A DNA stretch of 32,000 bases from positions 750,001 to 782,000 of the forward strand of contig NZ_RSDW01000001.1 of NCBI RefSeq assembly GCF_003945235.1, in the 5' to 3' direction. The notes beneath the pieces are model-generated. The model was not told the origin of the DNA, ran no database searches, and was given only the letters and a program-made list of their open reading frames with translations. The translations under genes were made by a program, and so were the position numbers. This stretch comes from Edaphobacter aggregans. Lineage in GTDB: Bacteria; Acidobacteriota; Terriglobia; Terriglobales; Acidobacteriaceae. Below are positions 10,842 to 32,000 of this stretch, piece after piece (the stretch's first letter is position 1; each line of letters starts with the position of its first letter).

Positions 10842-10877
10842 TCGCAGTGAGCGCCAACGGTGCAGCCTATACCAGCC

Positions 10878-10931: not shown

Positions 10932-10992
10932 GACCCATATCTTCTTCCTACTCCCTGAAATGCACGTCGGGAGATTCGTCATAAGCCTCGAT

Positions 10993-13827: not shown

Positions 13828-13840
13828 AACACCCTCCGCA

Positions 13841-13862: not shown

Positions 13863-13931
13863 CCAACGCAACTCGCGTCAGGTACGATAGTACGCGCTAA
13901 CGATCCATTATTATTCACCGAACGAGGACTC

Positions 13932-15152: not shown

Positions 15153-15214
15153 GCCTCATAGAATCATTCAGATCCCTCTGGCATATCAATTTCCCTCAAC
15201 CCGATATACTGGAA

Positions 15215-15330: not shown

Positions 15331-16363
15331 ACCGCAAAGCAGCCCGCCGCAGCGTCTCAGCCGCCGACTCAGGAGTGATATCCCGCTGCGGCCCGCCCAG
15401 CAACTCAAACCCAACCATGAACTTCCGGATGGTAGCCGAGCGCAGCAGCGGCGGATAGAAGTGAACATGAAAATGCCACCCTGGATGCTCCTTCCCATCG
15501 GAAGGCTGCGGATGTAGTCCCATCGAGTAAGGAAACGGCGTATCGAAGACCTTGTCATAAGTCGCCGTCACCTCCTTCAGAATCGCCGAAAAGCAATCCC
15601 GCTCCTCTGACGTCATCGCTTCTAGATCGGCGATGTGCCGGTCAGGAAGAATCATCACCTCAAAGGGCCAAACTGCCCAGAACGGAACCACAGCAACGAA
15701 CGCATCGTTCGCCGCCACCACCCGTTCCCCCAACGCAACCTCCATCGCCCGATACTCGCAAAGCAGACAGCACCCGTGTTCCTTCAAATACGCATCCTGC
15801 CCGGCTTGCTCCGCGACAACCTCATTCGGCAACGACCGGCTCGCCCAGATCTGCCCATGCGGATGCGGATTGCTGGCCCCCATCATGGCCCCGCGATTCT
15901 CAAACACCTGCACGTAGGAGATGTCCTCCCGCGAAACAAGCTCCAGCGACTGCTCAGCCCACACATCCACCACCGCACGAATCCCCCCCACCGACATCGT
16001 CGCCAGGGTCAGATCATGCCGAGGCGAAAAGCAGATCACCCGGCACACCCCACTCTCCCCCTCAGCAACAAGCAGCCCCTTACCCTCTTCATCGCTCGAA
16101 AATCGAGGAGTGTCCGGCTTCAAGGCCGCAAAGTCGTTTTCAAACACATAGGTGCTCGTATACTTGTCCGTCCGAGCCCCGCCAGCCCGCACATTCCCCG
16201 GACACAGATAGCACTCCGGATCGTACTGCAGCGCCGGTGGAGCAGCCGTCTTCTCCGTCTGTCCCTGCCACGGCCGCTGCGTCCGATGCGGCGAAACCAG
16301 CACCCACTCCCGCTTCAAGGGATTGAACCGCCGATGAGGATTCTGCTGAGCCAGTGGATTCAA
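15329..16363 (-). CDS. galT: galactose-1-phosphate uridylyltransferase (HIT family, class I)
   Basis: Motifs [32 protein letters not shown] and HPHGQIWA (HxHxQ). TTG start forms a TTGA overlap with the galK stop. Confidence 0.9.
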
Positions 16364-17532
16364 GCTGCCCCCACCTTCGCCGCCAGCGCAATCGCACCAT
16401 CGGAAGGCTCACACACAAAGCACTGCGCTTCGATCCCAGTAGCCGCGGCATACTCGCGCCGCACTGCCTCCACGAACTGCTCCGTCTTCTCTACACTCAC
16501 CACATTCACAGTACAGCCCCCAAACCCGCCCCCCGTAATCCGCGCTCCAAAACACCCCGATTGCCGCATTGCAATCTCGACCAGCGTATCCACCTCGGCG
16601 CAACTTGCGGCGAAATCATCCCGCATGCTCGCATGAGCCTCAACCATCAACTTCCCGAACCGCTCCATATCCCCATCCAGCAAAGCCTCCCGAGCCGCTA
16701 TCACCCGCGCATTCTCGGTAATGATGTGCCTGCATCGCGCAAAGCTCTCCGGAGTCATCTTCCCTCTACAAGCCTCCAGATCCTCAAGCGTCGCATCACG
16801 CAGCAGCTCAATTCCCTTGCGTTCTCGGCGCAACACCGCCTGCCCAGCCTCGACCTCGTCACTCCGATCCCCATACTCCCCCGCCGCCACGTCATGCTTA
16901 ACCATAGAGTTGCAGATCACGACGCGCTCCTGCTCGGGCAGAGGCAGTAACTCAAACTCCAGCGATCGGCAGTCCAGCAACATCGCGCGATGCGCCACCG
17001 CACCCGTCACCACAAACTGGTCCATGATCCCGCTCTTGGCCCCCACATACTCGTTCTCGGCTCTGCGGCAAAGCGTGGCGATCTTCTCCATCGGCAGCGT
17101 CACCCCCGCATGCCCCAGCAAGGCCATCGCCGTGGCCACCTCAATCGAGGCGGATGAGCTCAGTCCGGCCCCCAGCGGCACATTCCCCATCAACGTCAAG
17201 CTGAAGCCCCCCACGTCAATCCCCTCCTGCAACAGGCACCACAGCACCCCCGCCGGGTAGTCGCTCCACTCCCCTCGCGCACGTCCCAGCGAAGCAATCT
17301 CAAAAGAGGCTTCTTCTTCAAAGTTGGCCGAGTAGAACACAGCCCTGCCATCCTCACGCGGACTGACGACAGCCGCCGTGCGGAAGTCAATCGCCATGGG
17401 CAACACGAACCCACCCGTATAGTCCGTATGTTCTCCAATTAAATTCACACGCGCCGGCGCCGAAAACAACTGCCCATTTCGATCAAACCGCTGTCGATGC
17501 GCCCGCAGCGCCTGCTCGTCATCCACCCTCAT
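16360..17532 (-). CDS. galK: galactokinase (GHMP kinase)
   Basis: Motifs [24 protein letters not shown] and [15 protein letters not shown], plus [10 protein letters not shown]. Confidence 0.9.
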
Positions 17533-17718: not shown

Positions 17719-20700
17719 CTAGAAGACAAACCTTCCAGAGAACTGGAACGCCCGAGGATCGCCGCTGGCATTAGCGACCGCGCCGAAGGAGGCGGTATCT
17801 ACATTGACGCCAATTGTGTTGTTCGAAGCGTTATTGCCAAAATACACTCTGTTCGTCACATTCTGACAATCCACACCGAAGATGAACTTCGCACGCTCCG
17901 TGATGTCAAACTGGCGCCGCAAAGCGCTGGTCCAGTTGTAGACACCCATCCCGCGCAGAGCATAAGGCGCGATACGCGGCGCATCGCCGATCATATAGTT
18001 CCCCACGTCGCAGAATGGACCCGATGATGTGAGGCACGGAACCAGGGTCGTCTTTGTAGACCCGCTGCCGCCCCCAGCAATCTGGTTCAGACTAGTTGCC
18101 GAGGAATTGCCTGGATTCGCCGTCATGTACTTCATCGTACCGAGCGTCGCAGCCGTCACGCCCTTACCCCAGCCTCCGTTAATCCGCACCGAACCGAGGT
18201 AGTTCGGGTTGACGTCCGGCATACACGTACCCTGCCCGAGACTCTGGTTACCACCGCAAGTGGCAGTAATCGCCAGCGGCAGGCCCGACGTGTACTGGAA
18301 GATGTTCGAGAACGACCATCCTCCGGCAAGCGCGCGGACAAGGAAGTGCTCGCCGCCGATCTTGCCCTTTCCGAACGGAAGCTCGTAGACCCCAAAGATG
18401 CTCAGGTTCTGCGGCTGGCTATTGATACTCAGCGAGCGGTCGATGCGGTTCTGCGCCCAGGCATGCCCGGCGAGCGTCGCCGAGGCCGGAATCGCCCACC
18501 CGCTACGCGCTGTGCCGGCATCGTCGATATTCTTCGAATACGTGTAGTTGATATTCATCGTCAACCCATGCCACGAGCGAGCACCGACCGAAAGTTGGAA
18601 TGCGTTGTAGTTTGCGTTGGCGATATCGCCCCACGTGTCCGTCGTGCCGGAGTACTGCGGCATCCACGTCAGCATATGTGCGATGGTTGCATTCGAGTTA
18701 ACTCCTGCTGCCGCGACGTAACCCGCGTACGGAACCGGCAGCGTAAGGCCGGTTGCCGTCTGTGCCGCATTGATGTTGGCCTGCGTTGCCGGCAGACCGA
18801 GGTATGACTGCAAAGCAAACCACTTCGGATCGAGTTGCCCCGCCTGCAGACCACGCATATTGTTCGCGCCAGCGAGGAAGTGACTCTGGCTGCCGGCGTA
18901 GTTCAACGAGACTGTAATGGCGTTCGTGACTTCTTTCTGCATGCCGAAGTTCCAGAAGATGAACTGTGGCGCACGACCGGCCAGATACGGATCGGCATAA
19001 GCGATGCCTGTGCCATTCCCGCCGGACTTCCCAGCGGAGGTTACGTAGAAGCCCGTACCCTGTCCTTGTGTTGCCGCGCTAATCGGCGCTGGACTCGGCA
19101 GTACATATCCTGGTCCGCCGTAGTTGGCATTCGGTGACGAGAATGCCGGATTATTGTTCAGCCAAAATGCAGGAGCTGCAGTAGGCCCGGCGGCAACGTC
19201 CGTAAATGACAGCGCCGTATTGAATCCAGCCTGTCCCGTTCCGGTGCCAGCCCCGGTCGCTCCGCCCGTGCCGCCAGCATGCGAGAACAACACGCCCCAG
19301 CCTCCGCGGAAAACCGTCTTGTCGTCAGGTGAGTAAGCAAAACCGAGCCTCGGGCCGAAGTTCTTATAGAAGTTGTCTACTGGCGTCCGGCAGTTGCAGC
19401 TTACGCCCGCACCGCCATGGTTCCCGGCAAACTGCAGGGCTCCTGGATTTCCAGTAATTGGATTGGCGATGTTCGGATTGAGGAACGACCAGCGATCCTG
19501 ACTTTCCGTATAGGTCGGTATCCAGTCCCAGCGCAGCCCGAGGTTCAGCGTCAGCTTCGGGGTCACCTTGTAGTCATCTTGGAAGTAGAACGCATAGGGA
19601 CGGAAGCGTCCGCCTACCAGGCTGAACGGCTGAAGCGTCGTGCTCGAAGCGTTCACCGCACCCAGGAGGAAGCTGGCGTACGAGTACCCCGTCGTTGAGT
19701 CATAGCTGAAGCTCGAACCGCTCTTCGTAATATTGCCCGTCTCATTTGGACTCCAGGTGAGCGAAGTGGGCGTGGAAGGGCCGTCCGCCGTGCTGGCGTT
19801 GTTCTGCAGCCACTGGAGCTGCCCGCCGAAGTTCATCGAGTGCTTGCCCTTCAGCCAGTTCACGTTGTCCACAAGCGTAAATGTGTTCGAGACATTGGTC
19901 GTCGTTGGCGTATTGCCCACCCAGCCAAAGGACGTTGCGGAGGTAGTCGGACCCGCAGGAGGATTATTGCCGGTGAACGTGGTATTGGCTGCATTCTGCG
20001 AGCCCTGTCCCGCTGGCAGTCCAGTAATGCCCGAAGCCGCGAGCCCATACTTGCTGGGGTTCGTGCTCCCCGTAATGTTCTGAACGGGAGGGCCGCCAAA
20101 ATTCATGAAACCAAATTTGAACTGGTTTACAACATGCGGAGTGAAGGTAAACGTGTGCTGTAGATCTGCCCAGTGCCCGCCGACGGTCGAGATCGTGGTC
20201 GCATAGTACGGAACTGGCAGCGGCGCCGCAGTGGAGCTGGCCGTATAAGGAGAAGCGTGCCGGTTCCCGCCTGTAATGGCAAACGAAAGCGTCTGCCGGT
20301 CCGAGATGTTGTAATCTACGCGGCCCGAATAGAGCCAGTTGTCGTACCCCTGCGGTACACCACCGAGATAATTGTTGACGGTGCCATTATTTGTGCCTGG
20401 GCTGTTCGGCGCAGGCAGGAATTGCTGCTGGTACTGGGTGATCGGCGAAAGATAGCCAGCCGGAATGACGTTCTTGGTAGGGATGCCATTCTTCATGCCC
20501 ATGAACTGCTGGCGCGCACAGGTTTGGCTTGTCCCGGATCCTGTGCAAGCGGTGGTTGTAGGGTCGTAGATTGGTGTTGAGAGCTCAGTAAAATCGCCCT
20601 GCCGCATCAGCAACGTCGGAACCGTGGTCGCACTCGGGTTAACGCCCTGATGCGAGTGGAATCGGTCATACGTCGCAAAAAAGAAGAGCTTGTCACGCCC

Positions 20701-21675
20701 TTTGACGATGAACGGGATCTTGACCGGGCCGCCTACCGCGAAGCCGATTTCATTCTGATTCTCCGCCGGCTTCGGCCCCGGGACCGTCACCAACTGGCCA
20801 TTCTGAACCACCTGCTGCGTGTTGCCGCCGCCTGGCTTTGACGAGAACGACCAGGCATCAAACACCGTATTCCGGAAGTACCCGAAGATCGCGCCATGGT
20901 ACATATTTCCGCCCGACCTCAGGTTGTAGTTCTCGAGCCCCGCGCCCTGATACTCCGCCGAGAAGCCGCTCGTCACCACCTTCACCTGGTCGATCGACTC
21001 CAGCGGAACGATGTTGAACACCGGACGATTGTCGGCCTGCTGGCTCAGCGTCGTTATCGGCAGACCATCGACATACAGTTCACCGAGCCGCTGCGCCGTT
21101 CCACCGATGATCGAAGACCGGCCTCCCGGAGGCACCTGCGCTCCGGGCAGAAGGTTCGAGAACTGCGTGATATCGCGCTGCTGCAGGCCAGTGATCATGA
21201 TCGGCAGCTTCTGAATGTAGTTGTTGTCGATCGTGCCGCCAAGCGTTGGGTTCGTCGTCTCGAGCGCCGGTGGTGCGGCAGAGACGGTCACCGTCTCCGC
21301 CTGAGTGCCCGTCTTCAGGCTGATATTGAGGCCTACGTTGCTCATAGCATTGACAACGAGGTTTTCCTGCAGGAAAGTGGCAAACCCGTTGGCCGTGACC
21401 GTCACGGTATAGGTGCCGGGGTTCAGCGGGGAGATGTTGTAGAGACCACCGGAGGACGACGTGCGCACAGTCTCAATCCCTGTGGCAACATTGCGCGCGG
21501 TAATCGAGGCGTTCGGGACGACAGCGCCTGAAACGTCCGTCACCGTGCCGCTGATAGCGCCTTGACCACCGGTCTGCGCCACCACAGGAATAGCCATCAG
21601 CCCGCATATCACCAGAACAACCAGCCCAGCTACCCGATTCATCCAGCCAGTACTCCACATCTTTGTTACTCGCAT
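17719..21675 (-). CDS. TonB-dependent outer-membrane receptor with N-terminal carboxypeptidase-regulatory-like domain
   Basis: 1,318 aa from ATG 21675 (AGGAGG SD 6 nt upstream). Signal peptide ...LVICGLMAIPVVAQ. CarboxypepD_reg-like segment GAISGTVTDVSGAVVPNASITARNVATG...GTYTVTVTANGF. Plug/barrel-type sequence, and a C-terminal ...FSGRFVF ending in Phe. Confidence 0.85.
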   Translation of the reverse strand: MRVTKMWSTGWMNRVAGLVVLVICGLMAIPVVAQTGGQGAISGTVTDVSGAVVPNASITARNVATGIETVRTSSSGGLYNISPLNPGTYTVTVTANGFATFLQENLVVNAMSNVGLNISLKTGTQAETVTVSAAPPALETTNPTLGGTIDNNYIQKLPIMITGLQQRDITQFSNLLPGAQVPPGGRSSIIGGTAQRLGELYVDGLPITTLSQQADNRPVFNIVPLESIDQVKVVTSGFSAEYQGAGLENYNLRSGGNMYHGAIFGYFRNTVFDAWSFSSKPGGGNTQQVVQNGQLVTVPGPKPAENQNEIGFAVGGPVKIPFIVKGRDKLFFFATYDRFHSHQGVNPSATTVPTLLMRQGDFTELSTPIYDPTTTACTGSGTSQTCARQQFMGMKNGIPTKNVIPAGYLSPITQYQQQFLPAPNSPGTNNGTVNNYLGGVPQGYDNWLYSGRVDYNISDRQTLSFAITGGNRHASPYTASSTAAPLPVPYYATTISTVGGHWADLQHTFTFTPHVVNQFKFGFMNFGGPPVQNITGSTNPSKYGLAASGITGLPAGQGSQNAANTTFTGNNPPAGPTTSATSFGWVGNTPTTTNVSNTFTLVDNVNWLKGKHSMNFGGQLQWLQNNASTADGPSTPTSLTWSPNETGNITKSGSSFSYDSTTGYSYASFLLGAVNASSTTLQPFSLVGGRFRPYAFYFQDDYKVTPKLTLNLGLRWDWIPTYTESQDRWSFLNPNIANPITGNPGALQFAGNHGGAGVSCNCRTPVDNFYKNFGPRLGFAYSPDDKTVFRGGWGVLFSHAGGTGGATGAGTGTGQAGFNTALSFTDVAAGPTAAPAFWLNNNPAFSSPNANYGGPGYVLPSPAPISAATQGQGTGFYVTSAGKSGGNGTGIAYADPYLAGRAPQFIFWNFGMQKEVTNAITVSLNYAGSQSHFLAGANNMRGLQAGQLDPKWFALQSYLGLPATQANINAAQTATGLTLPVPYAGYVAAAGVNSNATIAHMLTWMPQYSGTTDTWGDIANANYNAFQLSVGARSWHGLTMNINYTYSKNIDDAGTARSGWAIPASATLAGHAWAQNRIDRSLSINSQPQNLSIFGVYELPFGKGKIGGEHFLVRALAGGWSFSNIFQYTSGLPLAITATCGGNQSLGQGTCMPDVNPNYLGSVRINGGWGKGVTAATLGTMKYMTANPGNSSATSLNQIAGGGSGSTKTTLVPCLTSSGPFCDVGNYMIGDAPRIAPYALRGMGVYNWTSALRRQFDITERAKFIFGVDCQNVTNRVYFGNNASNNTIGVNVDTASFGAVANASGDPRAFQFSGRFVF

Positions 21676-21771
21676 CGCCAACCTCCTGGAAGCCTTCACT
21701 CTGTCGCCCACGCATGCATGTCTCGGCCAAATGGTTCGACCACGTTATGTACGTTTTTTGGCTCGAACGAA

Positions 21772-21875: not shown

Positions 21876-24458
21876 CTATTCTTCCCGCAGCACTTCCAGC
21901 GGTTTCTGCCCCAGTATCCGGTGACTCGCCACCCATCCCGTAACCACCGTTAGGGCCGCAGTAGCCAGCAACGCCGCCCCATTCCACACCCAATGGAAGT
22001 GATACGCCGCCTCCATCCGCACTAGCAGCGTCCTAGCAATCAGATTGGCAAAGCCAATCCCCACCAGCCCCGCCACCAGCCCCAGCACCGCAAACTCAAT
22101 CGAAAACACCGTAGCAATCCGAGCCCGCGTAGCTCCAAGCGTCTTCAGCACCACGACCTCACGAATCCTCCGATACCGCGTTCCAGCAATCGAACTCGCC
22201 AGAATGATAATCCCCGCAAAGATGCTAAACGCCGCCAGAAACTGAATTACATACGTGATCTGCAACACCACCGACCGCACCGTCTCCAGCGCCTGCGCAA
22301 CATTGATCACCGTAACCGTCGGATACGCCGCATACAGCGCCCGCTGCAACTCACCCACCCGTGCCGGATCGACATGAATCCCCCCATACCAAACCACCGG
22401 CAGGCCCTTCAGCGGAGCGGGCGGCAAAATAAACTCCGCGCGCGAATACGCATGTTGCCCATCCGACTTAATCAACGGACCCACCGTAGCGACAAACTGC
22501 GTATCCTGCGCGGCAAATGTAATGTGCGAGCCCAACTTCACTCCCAGTCGTTGCGCAGTCCGTTGCCCGATCGCCACCATCGGCTGCGTCTCCTTCGGGT
22601 CCCACCACTTCCCTGCCACAATCGTCGTCCCCGGCGGCGGCCCCTCCGACCACGTCAAATTAATCGACTGCAACATCCGCTTCGGAAAATTCGAAAGCTT
22701 GGCCTGATTCGCCGGAACCCCATCAATCGCGATAATCCGCGACGACACCACCGGCAGCAACTCCGGCTCCGACGTCACACTCTTCTGCGACTTCAGCAGC
22801 GCTCGCATCCCGTTTATCTCGTCGTTCGTAATGTCGATAAGAAAGACATTCGGCAGATTAGGCGCACTCGAAATATGCAACTCCGTCACCACCGCCTGCT
22901 GCACCAGGTAAACCGCCATAATCTGCATCACACCCATTCCCAGCGCCGCCAGAAGAGCAGCCGAAGGATTCCCCGGCCGATACAGATTCGCCAGCCCATG
23001 TCGCACCGCCGAAGGCAAACTCAGCCGTGTCGTATTCAAAAACCACCGCAACCCCGCCAGCACAGCAGCCGAAGCCGCCAGCAACACCGCCAATACCCCA
23101 ACCAGTCCCAGCGAAAACACCTTCCCCACAGTAGCCGAGTCCGAAAGCGTAGTAGCAATCGCCGCCAGCCCAGCCAGAATCAGCGCAGCCGCAGCAATCT
23201 GGGCCAGATTCTTTCGAAGCTTGCGAAAGATCGCCGTCACAAAAGGATCGTCGTTATCCTCCACCGCCCGCCGCAAGATCAAAATCGGCCGCACATTCCG
23301 AATATCCAGCAGCAGAGGCAGCGTAAACAGAAGCGTAGTCAAAACACCCGCGCCCAGCCCCGTCAAAACAGTACGCAACTGAATATGCAGATCCGTTTCA
23401 AAATTAACAAACTTCGAAAGGAAGTACGGAAACGCCAGCTGGACTCCCACACCAAGCGCCACACCCAACAAGCCCCCCAGCAAACCCAGCATCAACGTTT
23501 GCAGCAGATAGATCTTGATAATCTGCCCGGACCGCGCACCCAGCGACTTCATAATCGCAATCGTATCCAGCCGCTGCTGCAGATGCGCCCGCATCGCCAT
23601 CGCAACACCCACCGCGCCCAGTACCAACGCCACCAGACTCATCAGCGACAACAAACTTGTCGCCCGATCCAACCCCTGCGTCAGCGCCGGATTCGTCTCA
23701 CGATAGTCGACGACCTGCGACTCCGGCAGCAACTTCACCAGACGATCCTTCAAGTCCCCCACAGCCTTGTCCGATATCGGCGCGCCGCCAGCAGGCTTCG
23801 GAACCTTGAACAAAAATCTCTGCCCTGCGTGACTCCCCGGAGCCAACAGCCCACTAGCCTCTAACCCCTCTCGCGAAATGAGCACGCGAGGCCCCGCAGC
23901 AAAATTCCCCGACAAACGATCCGGCTCATTCACCACAACCGCCGCAATCCGAAACAGCTGATTGCCAATCTTTAGCTGATCGCCCAGATTCAGCTTCAGC
24001 CGAACCAGCAGATCATCCGCCACCGCCACAGCATCCGGCTTCAGCGTCTCCCTCAGCGATGCCTTAGGCGACAGCTCCACTTCCCCATAAAACGGATACA
24101 GCTCCGGATCGACAGCCTTCAGCGAAACCAGCAACGGATCAAGCGTCTTCGCCGCCGAAGCCATCGAAAGCAGCTCCGTCACAGGCGTCATCTCGATTCC
24201 CTGCTGCTCAATCTCGTCCAACCCCTTCTGCTGCTCAGGCGTCGGCTGCATAAACATCCGCGCCGAAAGGTCCGCCGCCATAATGCTCCGCGCCCGATTC
24301 AGCAGCGTCGCCCGAAACGAAGACGAGAATCCCCGAACCCCAGTCAGCGCAGCCACGCCAATGGCCACCGACAAAATCACAAAGAAGAACTTACCCTTCG
24401 ACGAGCGCATCTCGCGAACGGCAATCTTGGCAGCAGAACGATAAGAAAGGGTCGCCAT
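21876..24458 (-). CDS. ABC transporter permease, double FtsX-domain (YbbP/MacB-type, about 10 TM)
   Basis: 860 aa from ATG 24458, 1 nt after the ATPase stop. N-terminus MATLSYRSAAKIAVREMRSSKGKFFFVILSVAIGVAAL. Two FtsX-like TM bundles are separated by large loops. Confidence 0.85.
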   Translation of the reverse strand: MATLSYRSAAKIAVREMRSSKGKFFFVILSVAIGVAALTGVRGFSSSFRATLLNRARSIMAADLSARMFMQPTPEQQKGLDEIEQQGIEMTPVTELLSMASAAKTLDPLLVSLKAVDPELYPFYGEVELSPKASLRETLKPDAVAVADDLLVRLKLNLGDQLKIGNQLFRIAAVVVNEPDRLSGNFAAGPRVLISREGLEASGLLAPGSHAGQRFLFKVPKPAGGAPISDKAVGDLKDRLVKLLPESQVVDYRETNPALTQGLDRATSLLSLMSLVALVLGAVGVAMAMRAHLQQRLDTIAIMKSLGARSGQIIKIYLLQTLMLGLLGGLLGVALGVGVQLAFPYFLSKFVNFETDLHIQLRTVLTGLGAGVLTTLLFTLPLLLDIRNVRPILILRRAVEDNDDPFVTAIFRKLRKNLAQIAAAALILAGLAAIATTLSDSATVGKVFSLGLVGVLAVLLAASAAVLAGLRWFLNTTRLSLPSAVRHGLANLYRPGNPSAALLAALGMGVMQIMAVYLVQQAVVTELHISSAPNLPNVFLIDITNDEINGMRALLKSQKSVTSEPELLPVVSSRIIAIDGVPANQAKLSNFPKRMLQSINLTWSEGPPPGTTIVAGKWWDPKETQPMVAIGQRTAQRLGVKLGSHITFAAQDTQFVATVGPLIKSDGQHAYSRAEFILPPAPLKGLPVVWYGGIHVDPARVGELQRALYAAYPTVTVINVAQALETVRSVVLQITYVIQFLAAFSIFAGIIILASSIAGTRYRRIREVVVLKTLGATRARIATVFSIEFAVLGLVAGLVGIGFANLIARTLLVRMEAAYHFHWVWNGAALLATAALTVVTGWVASHRILGQKPLEVLREE

Positions 24459-24459
24459 A

Positions 24460-25245
24460 TCAGGACCGCGCGCCCACAGCAGCCACACCCGGCATCTCCG
24501 CAGGCTGCGCATTCATCTCATCCGAAATAATCAGCCCATCGCGCAGCGTAATTCGCCTGTTCGCATAGCTCGCAAGCATAGGATCATGCGTCACCAGCAC
24601 CAGCGTCGTTCCCTCCGTGCGATTCAGGTTCAGCAGCAGCTCCAGCACATGCGCCCCATTCACCGTATCCAGATTCCCCGTAGGCTCATCCGCCAGCACA
24701 ATTGGAGGCCGCAGAATAAAAGCCCGCGCCAACGCCACCCGCTGCTGTTCCCCACCCGAAAGCTGCACAGGATAGTGCTCCATCCGATCACCCAGACCCA
24801 CATTCACCAGCAAATCCCGTGCCCGCGCCAAACCAGCCTTCGCATCCTGAGCCTCGGCATTCAGCTCATACGGCAGTAGCACGTTCTCCAGCGCCGTAAG
24901 CGTAGGAATCAACTGATACGACTGAAAGACAAACCCGATCGTCTTACCCCGCACCTGCGCCAGCTTGTCCTCCGGCAGATAACTAATCGCCGCGCCATTC
25001 AGGTACACATTGCCCGTGCTGGGAGTATCCAACCCCGCCAGCAACCCCAGCAACGTCGACTTACCCGAACCCGACGAACCCATAATCGCCGCAAACTGTC
25101 CCTGCGGAACCGTAAAGTCCAAGCCCTTCAAAATGTCCACCGTACGTGGGCCATTGCGAATCGATTTACGAAGTCCTTCTACTGCAATCATAGGAGCCCC
25201 TTGAGGTTCACCTTGAAATACGGTCTCAACTGCGGATTGGTTCAC
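24460..25245 (-). CDS. ABC transporter ATP-binding protein (YbbA/LolD/MacB-type)
   Basis: Walker A GSSGSGKST, signature LSGGEQQRVALARA, Walker B VLADEPT. GTG start at 25245; the alternative is ATG at residue 19. Confidence 0.9.
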   Translation of the reverse strand: MNQSAVETVFQGEPQGAPMIAVEGLRKSIRNGPRTVDILKGLDFTVPQGQFAAIMGSSGSGKSTLLGLLAGLDTPSTGNVYLNGAAISYLPEDKLAQVRGKTIGFVFQSYQLIPTLTALENVLLPYELNAEAQDAKAGLARARDLLVNVGLGDRMEHYPVQLSGGEQQRVALARAFILRPPIVLADEPTGNLDTVNGAHVLELLLNLNRTEGTTLVLVTHDPMLASYANRRITLRDGLIISDEMNAQPAEMPGVAAVGARS

Positions 25246-25298
25246 CTGTCAGATCTCCCTTGCGTCTACATCATTGGAGGTTTGGTAGATTCATAACG

Positions 25299-26039
25299 AT
25301 GCGGCGAATTGGATTTCTTCTTATACTAGCGGGTCTCTCTCTCAACACCATCGGATGCAAGCCCGACCGCGCCACGCAACAATCATCGACCATTGACGCG
25401 CGCCCAACCGACCTTCCCCGCCAGGAGACCGCCTACCCATCAGTCGCATCGGCCTCGCCCGCCTCTGACTCCGATGCCGCAAAAGATCCCCGACCGCGCA
25501 TAGTCGCCTTCGGAGACAGCCTCACCGCAGGCTACGGAACCGAAGCTGGCCAGAGCTACCCCGAGTTCCTCCAGCAGGACCTGGACCGTCTCGGCTACCA
25601 CTACCGCGTCATCAACGCCGGTATCAGCGGAAACACCACCAAAGACGGGGTAGAACGCATCCCCTCCATCATCGCCATGAAGCCCGCCGTCGTCATCGTC
25701 GAGTTCGGCGGCAACGACGGCCTGCGCGGCCTGCGCATCGAAGACTCCCGCGCCAACCTCGACAAGATCGTCTCCACCCTCCAGGCCAGCGGAACCAAAG
25801 TCGTCCTGGCCGGCATCTCCCTGCCCCCGGACTACGGCCCCGATTACATCCGCCAGTTCAACGAAACCTACACTCTGCTCGCCAAGAAGTACCACGTCCC
25901 CCTGCTTCCCTTCCTCCTCAAGGACGTCTATGGAGTTGACGGCATGATGCAACACGACCGAACCCACGCCACAGCCCAGGGCAACCAGGTGGTGGCCCAA
26001 AACGTCCTTCCACTGATCACCCCACTCCTCAAAAAATAG
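25299..26039 (+). CDS. SGNH/GDSL hydrolase (TesA/arylesterase-like), probable lipoprotein
   Basis: Block I VAFGDSLTAGYG, block III FGGNDG, block V DRTHATAQG. Start set at ATG 25299, giving MRRIGFLLILAGLSLNTIGC (signal plus lipobox-like Cys). Confidence 0.85.
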   Translation: MRRIGFLLILAGLSLNTIGCKPDRATQQSSTIDARPTDLPRQETAYPSVASASPASDSDAAKDPRPRIVAFGDSLTAGYGTEAGQSYPEFLQQDLDRLGYHYRVINAGISGNTTKDGVERIPSIIAMKPAVVIVEFGGNDGLRGLRIEDSRANLDKIVSTLQASGTKVVLAGISLPPDYGPDYIRQFNETYTLLAKKYHVPLLPFLLKDVYGVDGMMQHDRTHATAQGNQVVAQNVLPLITPLLKK

Positions 26040-26164
26040 CCCTCACCGTTTTGGCCGCTGCTTTTGCCGTTGGTCTCGCTGTTGTCAACCCCATCCCACC
26101 CTAACCCATTCAAAACCAATAACATCCAAGTGCCAATCCATTACTTCCTCGCCGGTATAATAGA

Positions 26165-26295
26165 AATAGAAACAAAAAGAGCCCCAGGCAATACTGGGCT
26201 CTCCGTATTTAACCTGATACCTGATAACCAGACCAAGTCCAGACTTAAAGTCTCTCAATCGAATACGTTAGAACCAAAGTATAGGGGGAGGATAC
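26165..26295 (+). repeat. modular intergenic element, copy C
   Basis: Modules: hairpin AGAGCCCCAG-gcaata-CTGGGCTCT (26178-26202), TTTAACC (26208-26214), AAGTCCAGACTTAA (26235-26248), AGGGGGAGGATAC, which ends at the truB stop (tta at 26296-26298). Confidence 0.7.
26171..26202 (-). terminator. intrinsic terminator of the GT2-PTPS-PTPS-folE-truB transcription unit
   Basis: On the minus strand the hairpin AGAGCCCAG...CTGGGGCTCT is followed by TTTTTGTTTC. It lies about 95 nt downstream of the truB stop. Confidence 0.65.
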
Positions 26296-27168
26296 TTACC
26301 CCATCACCACCGTAGGCTGCATCAACGTTCCGGCGACGCGACGCACAATAGCAATCAACTCCGTCGGGCTAACAAAAACCTTCACCAAGGGAGCCGAGGA
26401 AAAATCCGGCAAGTTTACCTGCATCCCGTTCCTCAGACGACCCGCCACCTGATCGTCCACAGTCACGCAGGGCATCTCTGGCAAAAGCGTCCGCGGATGC
26501 GGCAACAGACCAGGTATCTCGTCGACAGAAGCCTGCTTCAACTGCTCCACCGTAATCGCCTCAGCAAGCGTAAAAACCCCCGCCCGCGTCCGCCGAAGCG
26601 AAGAAAGATGAGCGCCGCAACCAGCCAGTTGACCAAGCTCATGTGCAACCGAGCGAACGTAACCACCCGCCGAAACTTCCATCTCAAAAGCCGCGACATT
26701 GCCCTCAAGCGACGTCAGCTCAAACCGATGGATCGTAATCCGTGCCGCTTTCACCGGAACCTCGACCCCCGCCCGCGCCAACTTATGCGCCGGCACACCA
26801 TTAATCTTCTTAGCCGAGTAAACAGGAGGAACCTGATCAACCTCATCCTTGAACCGAGCAGCCAACTCCCGCAACTCCCTCAAAGACCGCTCCAGCGGCA
26901 CCGGAGAAGCAGCAGGAACTCCTTCCGCGTCGAACGTATCCGTAGCAAAGCCAAACCGGATATGGCCCTCATAATGTTTCTCCGCCTGACCAAAAAACTG
27001 AGCAAGCCGCGTGCACTTCCCCAAAAGGAGCGGAAGCACACCCGTAGCCATAGGATCGAGCGTGCCAAGATGGCCAATCGATTTTTCGCCAGTAGCTCGG
27101 CGAACGATTGCAACAACGTCGTGTGATGTAAGACCGGAAGGTTTATCGAGTACTAGAAGACCATTCAT
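26296..27168 (-). CDS. truB: tRNA pseudouridine(55) synthase
   Basis: Motifs LLVLDKPSGLTSHDVV and GHLGTLDPMATGVLPLLLG (catalytic Asp motif), plus a PUA-like C-terminus. Confidence 0.9.
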   Translation of the reverse strand: MNGLLVLDKPSGLTSHDVVAIVRRATGEKSIGHLGTLDPMATGVLPLLLGKCTRLAQFFGQAEKHYEGHIRFGFATDTFDAEGVPAASPVPLERSLRELRELAARFKDEVDQVPPVYSAKKINGVPAHKLARAGVEVPVKAARITIHRFELTSLEGNVAAFEMEVSAGGYVRSVAHELGQLAGCGAHLSSLRRTRAGVFTLAEAITVEQLKQASVDEIPGLLPHPRTLLPEMPCVTVDDQVAGRLRNGMQVNLPDFSSAPLVKVFVSPTELIAIVRRVAGTLMQPTVVMG

Positions 27169-27187: not shown

Positions 27188-27793
27188 CTAGAAGCTGCTC
27201 CCCTGGCGCCGGACAAGAGAAAGGAACTCATTCCGCGTCTGCAACTGCGTCTTGAACACACCCAGCATCGCGGAAGTAACCGTGCTGGAATGCTGCTTCT
27301 CCACTCCACGCATCATCATGCAAAGATGCTGCGCCTCAAGGATCACCGCAACGCCCTGAGGATTGATCGCCTCCGTAATAGCTTCACCAACCTGAGTTGT
27401 CAGCCGCTCCTGAACCTGTAGTCGCCGCGCAAACACATCCACCAAACGAGGAATCTTACTCAGCCCGATGACCTTGCCATTTGGAACATAAGCAATATGA
27501 GCCTTGCCAAAGAAAGGAAGCAGATGATGCTCACACATCGAGAAGAACTCAATGTCCTTGACGATCACCATCTCGTCATAATCAACATCGAAGAGCGCAT
27601 CATGCAGCACATCCGTCACATTCATCGTGTAACCGCGCGTAAGGAACGCCATGGACTTCTCCATACGCTCCGGAGTTCGCAGAAGTCCATCGCGCGTGGG
27701 ATCTTCGCCAATGCGGGTCAGCATTTCACGATAGAGATCCTGTGTGGAAACAGCTTCGAGGCTAGTTTCAATTGTGGCTTGCGTACTTGCCAT
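27188..27793 (-). CDS. folE: GTP cyclohydrolase I (type 1)
   Basis: Motifs [50 protein letters not shown] and HLCMMMRGV. Confidence 0.9.
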
Positions 27794-27804
27794 GTTGAAC
27801 CTTT

Positions 27805-28212
27805 CTAAAATGCACCTGCAAAATCAAAGGAGTTATTACTCGTCTCCTCAACGTGAACGCTCTCAAGATGAGCAGCGGTGAACTTCGAGAAGATGCGATA
27901 AATCTCGATGCTTAGATTTTCGGTAGTTGTAACCGTATCCCGAAAGCAATCGAGCGTATTGAGATTCATCTGATCAAACTGTGCAATCAGATTTGTTTGC
28001 GCAAAATCATCAAGCTCCGCAAGGTTGCAAACCATGCCAGTAACTGAATCGACCGGGCCGCTCAGCGTGACCTGAACCATGTAGTTATGTCCATGTCCAT
28101 GTGGGTTATTGCACTTGCCATATACAACACGATTCCGATCATCATCATAAGCCTCAGCATGCAGCCTATGCGAGGCCGAGAAGTGGTAGCGGCGCGACAG
28201 ATGAGCCTTCAC
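27805..28212 (-). CDS. 6-pyruvoyl-tetrahydropterin / 6-carboxy-tetrahydropterin synthase family protein, divergent paralog
   Basis: COG0720-type sequence FSASHRL...[13 protein letters not shown]...TTEN...VEET. GTG start forms a GTGA overlap with the upstream paralog. The position of the catalytic Asp-His pair reads D80-Q81. Confidence 0.85.
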
Positions 28213-28622
28213 GATTGCTCTCCATAGTAGTCAGCGAAGAGATCAGGCATTTCATATATCCGAACACGGTGAAGCTTCGCATTAGGAATCTTGTTCTCCA
28301 AGCGATTCCACACTGCGATAGCAATGTTTTCGGTCGTAGGTATCGCCTTCGCGAATTCTGGCACCTCAAGATTCAAGTGACGGTGGTCATAAACGCTGAC
28401 GACCTCTTGCTCAAGAATGTCCTTGAGCTGCTTGAGGTCTACAACGAAGCCAGAAGTCGGATCCACCTCACCCGCGACGGTAACTTCGAGCGTGTAGTTG
28501 TGGCCATGACCATTGCGGTTGGCGCATTTGCCAAAAATGCGTTCGTTCTCCTCAAGCGACCACGCGTCGTTCCAGTAGTAGTGGGCTGAGGAGAATTCGG
28601 CTTTGCGAGTAAGAAAAATCAT
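28209..28622 (-). CDS. 6-pyruvoyl-tetrahydropterin / 6-carboxy-tetrahydropterin synthase (PTPS/QueD family)
   Basis: FSSAH...GKCANRNGHGHNY...YDHRHLN...TTENIA...IYEM closely parallels eukaryote-type PTPS. The true start is ATG 28622 (137 aa). The track ORF (to 29012) is an upstream extension that overlaps the GT2 gene. Confidence 0.85.
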   Translation of the reverse strand: MIFLTRKAEFSSAHYYWNDAWSLEENERIFGKCANRNGHGHNYTLEVTVAGEVDPTSGFVVDLKQLKDILEQEVVSVYDHRHLNLEVPEFAKAIPTTENIAIAVWNRLENKIPNAKLHRVRIYEMPDLFADYYGEQS

Positions 28623-28678
28623 CGTTGCTCTTTCATTAGACGTGCATTTGAACCATGCGGATGCAAATCGCAGCCACG

Positions 28679-29758
28679 CTAGCGGCCAACATTGTAACTG
28701 CGTCCCTTCCAGCTCACCGACTTTTTGATGTGATGTTGCATAACGCTGCGAAGTAAAAGATATACGAACATCGGTATACCCAGGATAGACATTGCAACAT
28801 CGAGCGTCGGAAAGTTGGAGCGGGCAACTCGAGCATAGAAACGCCAAAGCGTACGAGCCCATAACAGCAATATGGCCGCACGCTGCCAGGTCACAAGCCA
28901 CGGAAGACCAAGAGCAAGCGCAGGCAGCCCAACGAAGAGCAGCAGATCGAGTATGCGCCACGCAGCGAGATATATCGGCCGAGGAAACAACAGGGCAAGA
29001 TTCTTCGTCCACCCTTCAATCATGTCCGCGGTACTGCGGTACATCCGCGTTGAGAGCGCTTCAGGTGCATATCGAAAGCGAATCACACGCTTTGCACGCT
29101 TGATATTACGTGCAAGCGCTACATCCTCGAGGACGTTCATGCCAACCGCACGATGTCCACCAATGGAGAAGTAGGCATCGGACTCGACCAGCAGAAACTG
29201 ACCATTTGCTGCCGCCAGACCCCGCCCAGGGTCGTTGACCTGGTTTGAAGGATAGACCGATGCCAGCTCCGAGAACACCAGCGGCATCAGGGCGCGCTGC
29301 CAGAAGCCGCTAACGATCTGGCGCGGCGAGTACGATAGCAGGACTGCCTTGTGCCTCTCGGCCTCGCGGAGTGAGCGCGACAGAGAGAGGGGCTCATGGA
29401 TCGTGTCGGCGTCAGTAAACAACAGCCACTTGCCATTTGCGATCTGCGCTGCTGCCCAGCAGGCGTTGTTCTTGCCCGTGAAACCTCCTCGCGAGCTCAG
29501 ATCGAGCGGAGGCGCGTCGAGGACTGTAATGCCTTGATGGTTTGCCGCGAACTCGGTGGCGATCTCGCGAGTTCGATCGGTCGAGGCGTCGTTGACGACG
29601 ATGATCTCCCATTGCAGTCCGAGCGCGAAGCCAGGTTCGGACTGGCTCACGAGGGAGGTCAGGCAGGTTGGCAGCGCCTGTTCTTCGTTACGTGCGGGGA
29701 TGATGACGGAGAGCTCAAGTTCGGGGCTTGGGTCAGGATTCTGGTCGGTTGATTCCAC
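28679..29758 (-). CDS. glycosyltransferase family 2 (GT-A) with C-terminal transmembrane segments
   Basis: LSVIIPARNEE...IIVVNDASTDRT...GKNNACWAAA...LLFTDADTIHEP (DxD). The C-terminal about 100 aa is hydrophobic (LAAWRILDLLLFVGLPALALGLPWLV..., ILGIPMFVYLLL). GTG start at 29758. Substrate not inferable. Confidence 0.8.
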   Translation of the reverse strand: MESTDQNPDPSPELELSVIIPARNEEQALPTCLTSLVSQSEPGFALGLQWEIIVVNDASTDRTREIATEFAANHQGITVLDAPPLDLSSRGGFTGKNNACWAAAQIANGKWLLFTDADTIHEPLSLSRSLREAERHKAVLLSYSPRQIVSGFWQRALMPLVFSELASVYPSNQVNDPGRGLAAANGQFLLVESDAYFSIGGHRAVGMNVLEDVALARNIKRAKRVIRFRYAPEALSTRMYRSTADMIEGWTKNLALLFPRPIYLAAWRILDLLLFVGLPALALGLPWLVTWQRAAILLLWARTLWRFYARVARSNFPTLDVAMSILGIPMFVYLLLRSVMQHHIKKSVSWKGRSYNVGR

Positions 29759-29788
29759 GACTTCGTATTATAGGAAGTGGAGTCAATT

Positions 29789-30271
29789 GTGCGTAAATTT
29801 TGGGCGAGTGCTGTTTTGGTGGTGTTGTTGGTGACCGGGTGTGACCGTGGAGATCATCCGGGGAACATCGGCAAGGCTGCTCCGCAGTTTGTGATGAGCG
29901 ATGGGACGCGAACGGTTGACCTGAGCAAGCTTCGCGGGCGGGTTGTGCTGCTGAACCTCTGGGCGACGTACTGCGCGCCATGCATCGAGGAGTTGCCGAG
30001 CCTGCTCGCATTGCAGAAGAAGATGCCCGATATTGCTGTGGTTGCGGTCAGCATGGATCAGGATCCCGACGTCTATCGGAAGTTTCTTGTTGACCACCAT
30101 GTCGATGTGCTCACCGTGCGAGACGAGGAGATGAAGGTCAATGCCTTGTATGGAACGGTACAGATTCCTGAGACCTACGTGATCGACAGGCAGGGGGTTC
30201 TGCGCCGGAAGTTCGTTGGCGCTCAGGACTGGACCAAGCCGGAGATCATGGATTTTTTGCGGAAGATGTAG
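29789..30271 (+). CDS. TlpA-family thiol:disulfide oxidoreductase (redoxin), lipoprotein
   Basis: WATYCAPC active-site CxxC in a thioredoxin fold. Start set at GTG 29789 (GGAG at 29779-29782, 6-nt spacer), giving MRKFWASAVLVVLLVTGC with a lipobox. The track start is 29777. Confidence 0.85.
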   Translation: MRKFWASAVLVVLLVTGCDRGDHPGNIGKAAPQFVMSDGTRTVDLSKLRGRVVLLNLWATYCAPCIEELPSLLALQKKMPDIAVVAVSMDQDPDVYRKFLVDHHVDVLTVRDEEMKVNALYGTVQIPETYVIDRQGVLRRKFVGAQDWTKPEIMDFLRKM

Positions 30272-30863
30272 CCAGCGGCGCTTCTTTGCGAATGTCAATG
30301 GCACGTGCGCCTGCTCGATGAGCTGCTTCGAGGCCCTCGTCTGAGTCTTCGAAGACGATGCACGCTGCCGGATCGACCTTCATGCGGCGCGCAGCTTCGA
30401 GATAGACGTCTGGCGCTGGCTTTCCGTGCTTCACATCGTCGGCCGTGACGATGTAGTCGAAGAGAGACCGCAGTCCAACGTTGACCAGAGTGGCTTCCAC
30501 GTTCTCAAGAACTCCGTTCGATGCGACCGCCATAGGCACACGACCGTGCCAGACGCGAGCGATGTCCGCGACAAAGGTGATCTCTTCGATCAGGGGAATC
30601 GCTGCCTGGTAGGCGATGTTGTTGCGCGCGAAGAAGGCTGCGCGATCGATCGGCGGAGGGTTGAATGCTGCTTCGTACTCGTCGATCAACGGATCAGGAC
30701 CGAGTCCGTGTCTCAGGTGGTACCAGTCGGCGGTCATGGTAAGGCCAAGCGGCTTGAGCGCCTGCTGGATCGAGCGAAGATGCGCGGGAGCACTGTCGAC
30801 CAGCGTCCCATCGCAGTCGAAGATCAGCGCGGAGAACGTCCCTTCGATAAGCGAGATTGCCAT
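30246..30863 (-). CDS. HAD-IA family hydrolase (phosphatase / beta-phosphoglucomutase-like)
   Basis: Motif I FDCDGTLVDS, motif II ASNG, motif III HGKPAPD, motif IV FEDSDEG. The 3' end overlaps the convergent redoxin gene by 26 nt. Confidence 0.85.
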   Translation of the reverse strand: MAISLIEGTFSALIFDCDGTLVDSAPAHLRSIQQALKPLGLTMTADWYHLRHGLGPDPLIDEYEAAFNPPPIDRAAFFARNNIAYQAAIPLIEEITFVADIARVWHGRVPMAVASNGVLENVEATLVNVGLRSLFDYIVTADDVKHGKPAPDVYLEAARRMKVDPAACIVFEDSDEGLEAAHRAGARAIDIRKEAPLATSSAKNP

Positions 30864-31339
30864 AAGTTGATTTTATGGTTTCGGAGGTCTTCTTTACGCG
30901 TTGAAGAGGTCGCACCCGGGAGAGCGACCGCGGATTTGCACGGATAGACGCGGATGGAAGGTGAAAAGGCATAACAGCGATTTGCACCGATGACACCGAT
31001 GGAGTTGGTGGGTTTTCTGCTGTGGCTTGTAGGGTGGGGAGGATTTGGGGTTTGGGTTCTTGGGTGGGTTTGTCTTGGGCGAACTGGTCGAGGAGTTGGC
31101 GCATGATGCTCTTGGGACGGCCAGCGGCGGTGTCCTGGTCGTACTCGGATTGAGGGGCGAGGAGGCCTTGTTCGGGGTCGGTGGTGATGTCTTCGATGGG
31201 TGTGGCTTGGGTTGCGTAAGGGTCGGCGGCGGGTGGTGTGGTGGTAGTAGCAGAAGTCTTCGTGGCGCAGGCATGGGCTGCCGCAGCTGTGGCCGTCGGT
31301 GAAGATGTGGCGGCATTGGTAGCGTTTTGGTTCGGTCAT
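30824..31339 (-). pseudogene. Cys/His-rich small protein gene with an apparent frame change (possible pseudogene or sequence error)
   Basis: ATG 31339 follows a GGGGGAG SD. The first about 38 codons give MTEPKRYQCRHIFTDGHSCGSPCLRHEDFCYYHH (C-x9-C-x3-C-x6-C). After about nt 115 this frame becomes R/P/H-rich low complexity. The +1 frame reads a more protein-like PYATQATPIEDITTDPEQGLLAPQSEYDQDTAAGRPKSIMRQLLDQFAQDKPTQEP. All three frames stay open into or up to the HAD gene. Confidence 0.45.
30908..30990. repeat. REP-like element (hairpin plus duplicated GATTTGCAC)
   Basis: GGTCGC-N10-GCGACC hairpin (30908-30929). The 9-mer GATTTGCAC occurs twice (30933-30941 and 30979-30987). It lies inside the 3' part of all three open minus-strand frames of the upstream gene. 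Confidence 0.4.
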
Positions 31340-31475
31340 GATGGGTACTCCCCCTGGTGGACGTAAGATCTCAAAGTCTTCGAACGAAATGGTTTAGGTC
31401 TGGACTTCTGGTCTGTGGGTTAAATGCGAAGAGCCCCGGCTTTCGCCTGAGGGCTCTTTTTGTGTCTAGTTCTAT
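31340..31475 (-). repeat. modular intergenic element, copy D (inverted orientation)
   Basis: Read on the minus strand: hairpin AGAGCCC...GGGCTCT (31457-31430), TTTAACC (31424-31418), AAGTCCAGACCTAA (31407-31394), GAAGACTTT (31381-31373), GGGGGAGTAC, then 6 nt, then ATG 31339. Confidence 0.75.
31429..31462 (+). terminator. terminator-like hairpin plus T-tract with no upstream plus-strand gene
   Basis: AAGAGCCCCGGC-tttc-GCC-tga-GGGCTCTT followed by TTTTGTGTC on the plus strand. It is the hairpin module of copy D. Confidence 0.5.
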
Positions 31476-31586
31476 TTTAGCGGGTCGAGGGGAATGATTA
31501 GGCACGGAGATGTGCTTTGGAATGTGGAGGATACGTAGGTTGGGGGCTTGACAAGGTTTTGGGCTGGGATAGGAAGGCATACCCCA

Positions 31587-31640
31587 GGGGGCTAAAGCCC
31601 CTTTTTCTTGCTCGAGGAGAGAGACCCAGGGGCTGAAGCC
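31587..31640. repeat. REP-like GC hairpins
   Basis: GGGGC-taaa-GCCCC followed by TTTTTCTTG (31587-31610), and GGCT-ga-AGCC within CCCAGGGGCTGAAGCCTTGGGG (31626-31647). Confidence 0.4.
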
Positions 31641-31655
31641 TTGGGGTGCCTAGAT

Positions 31656-31700
31656 GCAACGGCAACTGCAACGGCAACAGCAGATCCCTGCAGATCCCTG
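31656..31700 (+). repeat. short tandem repeats: (GCAACN)x4 followed by a 10-bp duplication CAGATCCCTG x2
   Basis: gcaacg gcaact gcaacg gcaaca gca (31656-31682), then cagatccctg cagatccctg (31681-31700). Confidence 0.8.
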
Positions 31701-31807
31701 CGGATGACAAGCAAGAAAGCACTGCAAAAACGAGAGCTGGCGGGGGTAGGGGGATACTTTTACGCGGTGTCGAAAGCTGCTTCCGCCATCTTGATATGAT
31801 CGATTGC

Positions 31808-32000
31808 ATGACACAACTTGATGTTTTGTACCGGTATGGAGTGCCACCGACGGAGGCTGCTGCGCTGGCAATTGCCCGGACTCGCGAAGTCTATGGCGTG
31901 CGACGGGTTGAGTTCAACGAGGCGGAGAAGACCGTCCGGGTAGAGTACGACGCAACGCGGCTGAACGAGGCCACGATTCATCAGCTGCTGCGACGCGCCG
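31808..32000 (+). CDS. hypothetical protein, N-terminal part only (runs off the right edge)
   Basis: ATG 31808 (an in-frame ATG also lies at 31796), open to the window end. Translation: MTQLDVLYRYGVPPTEAAALAIARTREVYGVRRVEFNEAEKTVRVEYDATRLNEATIHQLLRRA. G-ending codons fit the local strand bias. No SD seen and no family recognised. Confidence 0.4.
   Translation, partial: MTQLDVLYRYGVPPTEAAALAIARTREVYGVRRVEFNEAEKTVRVEYDATRLNEATIHQLLRRA

Follow-up and report, generated by a model that had tools for sequence, protein, structure and literature searches.

Extreme strand asymmetry and a mosaic of GC skew around a conserved divergent gene junction in Edaphobacter aggregans

GC skew in bacteria is typically about 2.5% according to one passage of PMC8941118, and in a survey of 1111 genomes the Acidobacteria showed the lowest mean bias among the phyla quoted (0.009, compared with a mean of 0.10 for the top phylum; PMC4613354). 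Here we analyse a 32,000-nucleotide stretch of DNA from Edaphobacter aggregans, hereafter the window, in which a first-pass annotation had noticed that a pronounced strand asymmetry appeared to change sign at 29.76-29.79 kb, at the junction between divergent genes encoding a family-2 glycosyltransferase (GT2) and a redoxin, with the polarity of a replication origin. The skew of the window resembles replication-associated GC and AT skew in that it is regional and independent of gene orientation, couples an excess of G over C with an excess of T over A on one strand, peaks at synonymous sites, with lower values in spacers, and is accompanied by a location of most genes on the G-rich strand. It differs in its amplitude, which at about 0.3 over the whole sequence and 0.76 at four-fold degenerate sites is far larger than the figures in that survey and in the passage referred to above (PMC4613354, PMC8941118). 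A literature search for a description of extreme skew in Acidobacteriaceae found none. Imbalances of G and C at four-fold sites that are comparable in size to those of the window occur in animal mitochondrial genomes, which are a different type of replicon with a different mode of replication, and nothing in the window points to long single-stranded intermediates.

The genes dnaA, dnaN, gyrB and parAB are frequently, although not universally, located near oriC. The junction is similar to a bacterial oriC only in the polarity of the sign change and in the divergent orientation of the flanking genes; it differs in that DnaA-box clusters, a dnaA gene and an AT-rich spacer are all absent and would find no space there, and the switch is not conserved in syntenic relatives. 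A second point of comparison is provided by recombination-rich core genes on the flanks of hypervariable loci, as in Escherichia coli, where Milkman reportedly described “bastions of polymorphism” around rfb and hsd. As in loci of this type, divergence between clades is raised in the window and near-identical tracts are shared by otherwise diverged lineages, but exchange in the window becomes visible through the loss of strand skew, which we have not seen described. The region is also reminiscent of tRNA-linked variable regions, in that the conserved genes border a position at which close relatives differ completely in cargo, although neither an integrase nor an att repeat was found in the two relatives searched (L162 and L046) and the tRNA-Arg in question lies outside the window.

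For comparison we used 80 genome loci centred on the GT2 orthologue (about 160 loci, designated by L numbers, were fetched in all), with stretches of 21-31 kb read per relative genome. Pfam assignments and the related loci place the window in the Edaphobacter/Granulicella group of the Acidobacteriaceae. Within the genome collection its best relative is L002, a contig from a metagenome-assembled genome, with a DNA identity of about 89%. Skew signs refer to the + strand of the window, except where values for third codon positions (GC3) are stated for the GT2-carrying strand. The sign change is probably the product of a recombinant low-skew patch together with a small insertion, situated beside a hypervariable spot at the edge of an extremely skewed arm, and would represent neither an origin nor an inversion endpoint at 29.77 kb.

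Amplitude and distribution of the skew

The asymmetry is carried by a left domain in two parts, with + strand GC skews of -0.317 (893-17532) and -0.262 (21876-27168). At the pooled four-fold sites of this domain the + strand has 353 G compared with 2530 C (skew -0.76), corresponding to a C:G ratio of about 7:1 at the silent sites of one strand. Four-fold skew lies between -0.55 and -0.85 in all 17 genes of the domain, whichever their orientation, and the three genes on the + strand carry the regional sign (GH28 -0.85, rhaT -0.76 and SGNH -0.62). Within the second part, values run from -0.81 in the FtsX-type permease gene to -0.55 in truB. AT skew is opposite in sign (+0.45 at the four-fold sites of the left domain), and the intergenic spacers share the sign of the GC skew in 11 of 11 cases, at lower amplitude. 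A locus 92-93% identical to the window (L171) extends the -0.3 domain for at least 10 kb to the left of the window start, including five consecutive + strand genes at -0.3 to -0.38, and the longest uniform stretch assembled for the lineage, combining L171 with the window, is about 36 kb. Among the 80 related loci, the SGNH and redoxin orthologues take the skew sign of their neighbours in most cases. The asymmetry therefore follows the DNA strand regionally and not the orientation of genes. The first-pass annotation had described it as extreme and as dependent on the strand rather than the gene, and both descriptions are borne out; its hand counts of 60-nucleotide lines were correct to within one base, and 20 of the 23 genes to the left of the junction do lie on one strand, the - strand.

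In these respects the asymmetry resembles a leading/lagging-strand mutational bias, of which fork direction would be the cause. The four-fold substitution spectrum of the left domain (window compared with L002, outgroup L046; small counts) is not simply that of cytosine deamination. Per site on the + strand, A>C reached 0.118 compared with 0 for T>G and G>C reached 0.089 compared with 0.020 for C>G, and a similar asymmetry is seen in G>A (0.111) and C>T (0.046). Within the one family, skew amplitude ranges from about 0.05 to 0.3 among genomes. The flip is in itself ordinary; the noteworthy part is the amplitude, which differs several-fold between related genomes and occurs in a phylum reported to be the least skewed (PMC4613354). 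If it is driven by replication, these lineages would have an unusually lopsided regime of mutation or repair, which could be traced by comparing high-skew with low-skew relatives.

The window is a mosaic of skew and not a pair of domains, since the gene for a TonB-dependent receptor (17719-21711), which lies inside the -0.3 domain, has a skew of -0.013 (-0.17 at four-fold sites), and the first 850 bases are likewise without skew (+0.008, and +0.02 at the four-fold sites of the open reading frame (ORF) at 3-800). Strong skew ends at about 27.2 kb, at the boundary between truB and folE. The adjoining operon, which comprises folE, two genes for 6-pyruvoyl-tetrahydropterin synthase (PTPS) and the GT2 gene (27188-29758), has a skew of -0.018 (p=0.52) and a non-significant four-fold skew of -0.05, with values of -0.30, -0.12, +0.18 and +0.02 for the four genes in this order. 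To the right of the junction the + strand skew is +0.217 overall (29777-32000). The redoxin gene and the neighbouring gene for a HAD-family hydrolase together give +0.139 at all sites and +0.16 at four-fold sites (74 G, 54 C; p=0.09), and redoxin is the only conserved gene on this side that is clearly positive (37 G, 18 C; +0.35), the HAD gene having no skew (37 G, 36 C; +0.01). The strongest values belong to the insertion at 30864-31770, which has a skew of +0.346 and contains the strongly G-rich lines, including 31021-31080. The change is therefore not the sign flip proposed at 29.76-29.79 kb, since the right side is positive overall but the strong skew has already ended at about 27.2 kb; the claim that the compositional rule inverts to the right of the junction holds for redoxin and not for HAD, and the G-rich lines that suggested it sit in the insertion. 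Measured on the GT2 strand, GC3 skew fades from +0.74 in the FtsX-type gene through +0.52 in truB and +0.32 in folE to about 0 in GT2 and -0.31 in redoxin. Both PTPS genes show an intrinsic offset in third-position GC skew of about -0.3, which is present in all genomes.

The junction itself consists of an 18-bp spacer that holds the imperfect palindrome CTTCCTATAATACGAAGT on the GT2 strand, arranged around a perfect TATAAT. The palindrome ends 2 bases ahead of the GTG start codon of GT2 and its TATAAT ends 8 bases ahead; the motif is found with at most three substitutions in 66 of the 80 related loci and is exact in 22. Judged by its sequence, the spacer is a predicted compact divergent promoter/operator, and the distance of 8 bases between TATAAT and start codon suggests that the folE-PTPS-GT2 operon may be transcribed as a leaderless mRNA. 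A consensus scan of 29.5-32 kb detected no full sigma-70 promoter, an Rfam scan of 25.5-32 kb gave no match, and the G+C content in 200-base windows around the spacer is 0.55-0.61. The palindrome was also considered as a dif site and rejected, as the XerD arm is absent and only about 8 bases are shared, by eye, with the XerC arm of Bacillus subtilis.

Recombination tracts and the variable tRNA-Arg spot

Divergence was measured along the alignment of the window with L163, a 132.8-kb contig that is collinear with positions 19797-31129. It falls steeply in two segments to the right of 27.9 kb that are separated by a more diverged stretch (Table 1). Compared with L002, divergence over the same segment rises from 8.0% to 11.7-14.6%, and compared with L046 from 10.7% to 17%. 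The segment is made up of homologous-recombination tracts with ends near 27.8, 28.9 and 29.3 kb, and the 29.77-kb junction lies inside a single tract (29300-30900), in which the window is 99.1% identical to L163, a relative diverged by 8.5% elsewhere. The redoxin product (160 amino acids) is identical on three other contigs. A local rearrangement scar, which the first-pass annotation had offered as a fallback, comes closest to these data, in that the segment is recombinant and has a history distinct from that of its surroundings. Elsewhere in the window, the TonB receptor has 72% amino-acid identity to its counterpart in L002, compared with 97% for the flanking FtsX-type protein, which makes it probable that one allele of this surface receptor has replaced another. 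At the left end, homology to L171 begins only at position 1058, L171 having GH35, GH106 and GyrI-like genes there instead, which indicates that the 850 bases without skew at the window start are specific to the lineage as well.

The right flank of the block is variable. The insertion of about 0.9 kb that follows the HAD gene is absent from L002, L046 and L167, relatives that are about 88% identical; four short-read contigs of closer relatives (94-98.5% identical) all end at the window equivalent of 31037-31129. Dispersed intergenic repeats of about 100-160 bases, resembling miniature inverted-repeat transposable elements or repetitive extragenic palindromes, are located at 31373-31513, 31568-31728, 26122-26214 (inverted) and 15189-15302, and are common to spacers in L004, L009, L034, L046, L059 and L065. 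The Cys-rich ORF on the - strand (30824-31339) begins MTEPKRYQCRHIFTDGHSCGSPCLRHEDFCYYHH and continues as low-complexity R/P/H sequence; it has no Pfam match and no homologue among the fetched loci. A second frame at 30894-31316 reads like a normal protein, which suggests that the Cys-rich ORF is frameshifted.

In all relatives examined at this position (L162, L167, L169, L170 and L173) tRNA-Arg(TCG) comes within about 30-55 bp after a small HMA-like gene. The right end of the window contains the start of this gene, and the tRNA is therefore expected just past that end. Beyond the tRNA-Arg, three relatives of 87-89% identity carry three unrelated DNAs. L002/L162 encode SMODS, SLATT and SRAP proteins in a stretch with a skew of about 0. 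Farther right, where the skew is -0.28 (TonB-like gene) and then about -0.1, there follow + strand genes for the TonB-like receptor and GH106 proteins and then mixed small patches. The cargo of L046 comprises genes for an IS110 transposase, a dehydrogenase and a chromate transporter, and L167 has a different gene encoding 718 amino acids, in both cases with a skew of about 0. The SMODS and SLATT_4 proteins encoded directly past the tRNA-Arg in L162 (5874-7359), ahead of the SRAP-domain protein, represent a candidate nucleotide-signalling defence pair. In L169 and L170, which have another left context, the HMA-like/tRNA-Arg pair marks the exact point at which the skew goes from about -0.2 to about 0. 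Of the closest relatives, three have sequence that extends past the block, and none of these contains a sustained positive domain; in L002/L162 the cumulative skew is still falling 17 kb past truB, so that the block is merely a plateau there.

The same syntenic block is all-positive, all-negative or graded in skew among relatives. On the GT2 strand, its GC3 skew is about +0.6 throughout in L010, L012, L022, L023, L037, L065, L076 and L077, about -0.7 throughout in L013, L034, L044 and L070, weak in L016, L029, L049, L073 and L074, and graded from - to + in the clade of the window (L001, L002 and L046) and in L005, L006/L007, L021 and L026. As the block thus occurs in either orientation to the asymmetry across the family, and some lineages are little skewed, imported alleles would be expected to have weak or opposite skew.

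We propose that the window lies on a chromosome arm with replication-type asymmetry, in which the - strand is G- and T-rich and carries most genes, and that this asymmetry is borne by DNA long resident in one orientation. The remainder of the window, which starts at about 27.2 kb, would have a different history: the pterin/GT2-redoxin-HAD block, located by the HMA-like gene and tRNA-Arg, may pass between lineages by homologous recombination, either with the variable cargo or alongside it. Imported alleles would dilute the skew to about 0, with an effect that fades with distance from the tRNA-Arg spot, and the small repeat-bearing insertion, with a G-rich composition of its own, would add the apparent strong reversal. 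It would then be imported ancestry, rather than local replication behaviour, that removes the skew. Since the background skew is so strong, DNA that has recently arrived or been turned stands out as a skew-free or reversed patch; examples in the window are the left-end patch, the allele of the TonB receptor, the insertion and the recombination tract. For abundant soil bacteria that are difficult to culture, skew could therefore chart gene flow and recombination with high sensitivity.

Several observations weigh against this interpretation. The sequence read ends at 32 kb, and a long positive domain may still follow farther to the right. No integrase and no tRNA-derived direct repeat (at least 14 bases of the tRNA end) were found beside the tRNA-Arg in L162 or L046, L046 having the IS110 transposase and no integrase. 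A scan for sign changes in 55 loci of at least 20 kb (1.16 Mb) gave nine clear changes, eight of them from - to + and seven of these at the block; this recurrence is not fully explained by recombination, although it is partly expected, given that the loci are centred on the block, that the + state is commoner and that the hotspot adjoins the block. Several loci that switch share two-sided synteny with loci that do not (the L005 group compared with L020, L024, L025 and L031, and the L076 clade compared with L044 and L051). By contrast, polarised four-fold substitutions (window and L002, with L046 as outgroup) give complementary-rate asymmetries of about 3.8 for the left domain, about 1.5 for folE-GT2 and about 0.8 for redoxin/HAD, which agrees with the interpretation, but the values derive from small counts and from a parsimony that is biased under skewed composition. 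In L065/L076/L077 both domains seemingly lose skew by this measure, which is a known artefact of parsimony under skewed composition.

Inversion, initiation and transcription as alternatives

Redoxin is divergently adjacent to GT2-PTPS-PTPS-folE in 80 of 80 loci, truB is next in most of them, and SGNH-ABC-FtsX and galKT follow in many. Because gene order across the junction is intact in every locus, the site is not a rearrangement breakpoint, and the suggestion that an inversion or rearrangement ends at about 29.77 kb fails on this synteny check, the site also lying inside one recombination tract (29.3-30.9 kb). A broader possibility is that the patch is the remnant of an inversion in which the block, or a larger segment, was turned and its synonymous sites are part-way to a new equilibrium. 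L006 and L013 do carry an in-place inversion of the segment from the tRNA and redoxin to truB, L004, L082 and L083 have the HMA-like/tRNA-Arg pair on the opposite side of the block, and one inverted pair of the intergenic repeats (26122-26214 and about 31418-31513) brackets the truB-to-HAD block. We nevertheless regard a remnant of this kind as unlikely. The skew is graded inside the bracketed segment (-0.55 in truB compared with about 0 in GT2), and left-domain-type changes amount to 51% of those observed, compared with about 73% expected if the segment were merely relaxing under the left regime. The near-identity to L163 needs recombination in any case, and the window has the commonest gene order, so that two successive inversions would be required.

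We consider it very improbable that the block is a chromosomal origin, or a DnaA-box-poor initiation zone, from which forks diverge at about 28-30 kb and whose signal has been blurred by recombination. The polarity is of the origin type, 20 of the 23 genes on the left point away from the site, and substitutions in this part of the window show almost no asymmetry. Several lineages with two-sided synteny, among them L005, L035 and the L065/L076/L077 clade, repeat the transition from - to + at the block (in L026, too, the sign switches there, but no other locus matched its left flank), and the inversion of the block in place in L006 and L013 is of a kind seen around origins. On the other hand, dnaA is absent within 10 kb in every locus, E. 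coli DnaA as a tblastn query found no match in the window or in 161 loci, and none of dnaA, dnaN, gyrB and parAB is among the Pfam-assigned genes of the window. No cluster of at least three DnaA boxes per 500 bp is present in the window or in the approximately 160 loci. Boxes with one mismatch (TTATCCACA-like 9-mers, from which the acidobacterial variant may differ) number 5 in the whole window, where 4.0 would be expected, and the interval 22.9-32 kb contains none of them. There is no intergenic room for an origin, as the 18-bp spacer is occupied by the conserved promoter motif, and no AT-rich unwinding element was found in non-coding DNA at the junction.

The behaviour of the switch in relatives also argues against initiation at this site. 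Syntenic relatives are uniformly positive, uniformly negative or graded across it, most of them showing one uniform sign, and the zero crossing falls at differing genes among genomes (7 to 13.5 kb in locus coordinates). Cumulative skew in L002 keeps falling rightward, and L046 and L167 have a skew of about 0 to the right. The absence of oriC hallmarks recorded in the first-pass annotation thus extends to the related loci, which contain neither a dnaA gene nor a DnaA-box cluster. Its reading of the site as a replication origin is not sustained, given this absence, the 18-bp promoter spacer, the occurrence of all skew states in relatives and the lack of a positive domain beyond the block in the three closest relatives sequenced there. 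The orientation of tRNA genes was considered as an indicator of the leading strand, and nearly all hits were the same orthologous tRNA-Arg. In L065, L076 and L077 a clean switch from -0.3 to +0.3 is observed at about 7.5-10 kb, across feoB, feoA, tRNA-Arg, HMA-like, redoxin and GT2 genes; the skew is uniform for at least 8 kb to the left and for 11 kb to the right, there are no DnaA boxes, and L044, which has the same gene order, is negative throughout. There seems little chance that the recurrent - to + transitions, which occur in several genera of Acidobacteriaceae with synteny preserved to the left and right, mark an initiation zone that has no canonical DnaA-box cluster and is located away from dnaA, with the patch in the window as a recombination-blurred version of it. 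Were this so, these bacteria would combine an atypical origin with a strand asymmetry stronger than that of any other known bacterial chromosome.

That transcription drives the asymmetry by making coding strands G- and T-rich, with the flip arising from the divergence of GT2 and redoxin, can be all but dismissed: the flip is near a divergent promoter, coding strands are G-rich in most left-domain genes and intergenic skew is weaker than that of four-fold sites, but the minority-strand genes GH28, rhaT and SGNH and the five consecutive + strand genes of L171 take the regional sign at the values given above, the skew of the HAD gene and the Cys-rich ORF, both on the - strand, is not the one that their orientation would give, and the block genes of L034, L044 and L013 nearly all have C-rich coding strands.

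Gene content of the window

Table 1. Features of the 32,000-nucleotide window and divergence from L163 along the alignment
Feature	Position	Strand	Remarks
Left end, short unassigned stretch	1..850		ORF 3-800 on - strand, without Pfam match
Strongly skewed domain, part 1	893..17532		+ strand C- and A-rich; rhamnose/lactate-utilisation genes among others; gene order GH28 (+), RNase II-type, DUF6314, FGGY kinase, rhamnulose-phosphate aldolase/dehydrogenase, regulator, isomerase, lutCBA, rhaT (+), galT, galK
TonB-dependent receptor gene	17719..21711	-	1330 amino acids
Strongly skewed domain, part 2	21876..27168		FtsX-type permease, ABC ATPase, SGNH hydrolase (+), truB
Operon folE-PTPS-PTPS-GT2	27188..29758	-	Pfam; G+C 0.53
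Imperfect palindrome CTTCCTATAATACGAAGT	29761..29778	-	TATAAT hexamer at centre; adjoins GT2 start codon
Redoxin/AhpC-TSA gene	29789..30271	+	Pfam; divergent from GT2
HAD-family hydrolase gene	30246..30863	-	Pfam
Insertion, repeat-bearing, lineage-specific	30864..31770		holds Cys-rich ORF on - strand
Small HMA-like gene, start only	31808..32000	+	weak Pfam HMA match
Divergence from L163	21.9-25.9 kb		8.7%
Divergence from L163	26.3-27.9 kb		8.3%
Divergence from L163	27.9-28.9 kb		2.5%; zero differences over 28.4-28.7 kb
Divergence from L163	28.9-29.4 kb		11.2% (400 bases at 28.9-29.3 kb)
Divergence from L163	29.4-30.9 kb		0.9% (14 differences in 1499 bases)

The left domain contains a rhamnose catabolic cluster (4455-15152) that encodes RhaT, an FGGY kinase, a fused aldolase/dehydrogenase, an isomerase and a regulator of the IclR type that contains a sugar-binding domain. 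The lutABC genes are interleaved with this cluster and would serve the lactaldehyde/lactate branch. At the other end of the window, the cluster encoding GTP cyclohydrolase I, the two PTPS paralogues and GT2 (27188-29758) is conserved family-wide, and its conservation suggests a role in the synthesis of a glycosylated pterin.

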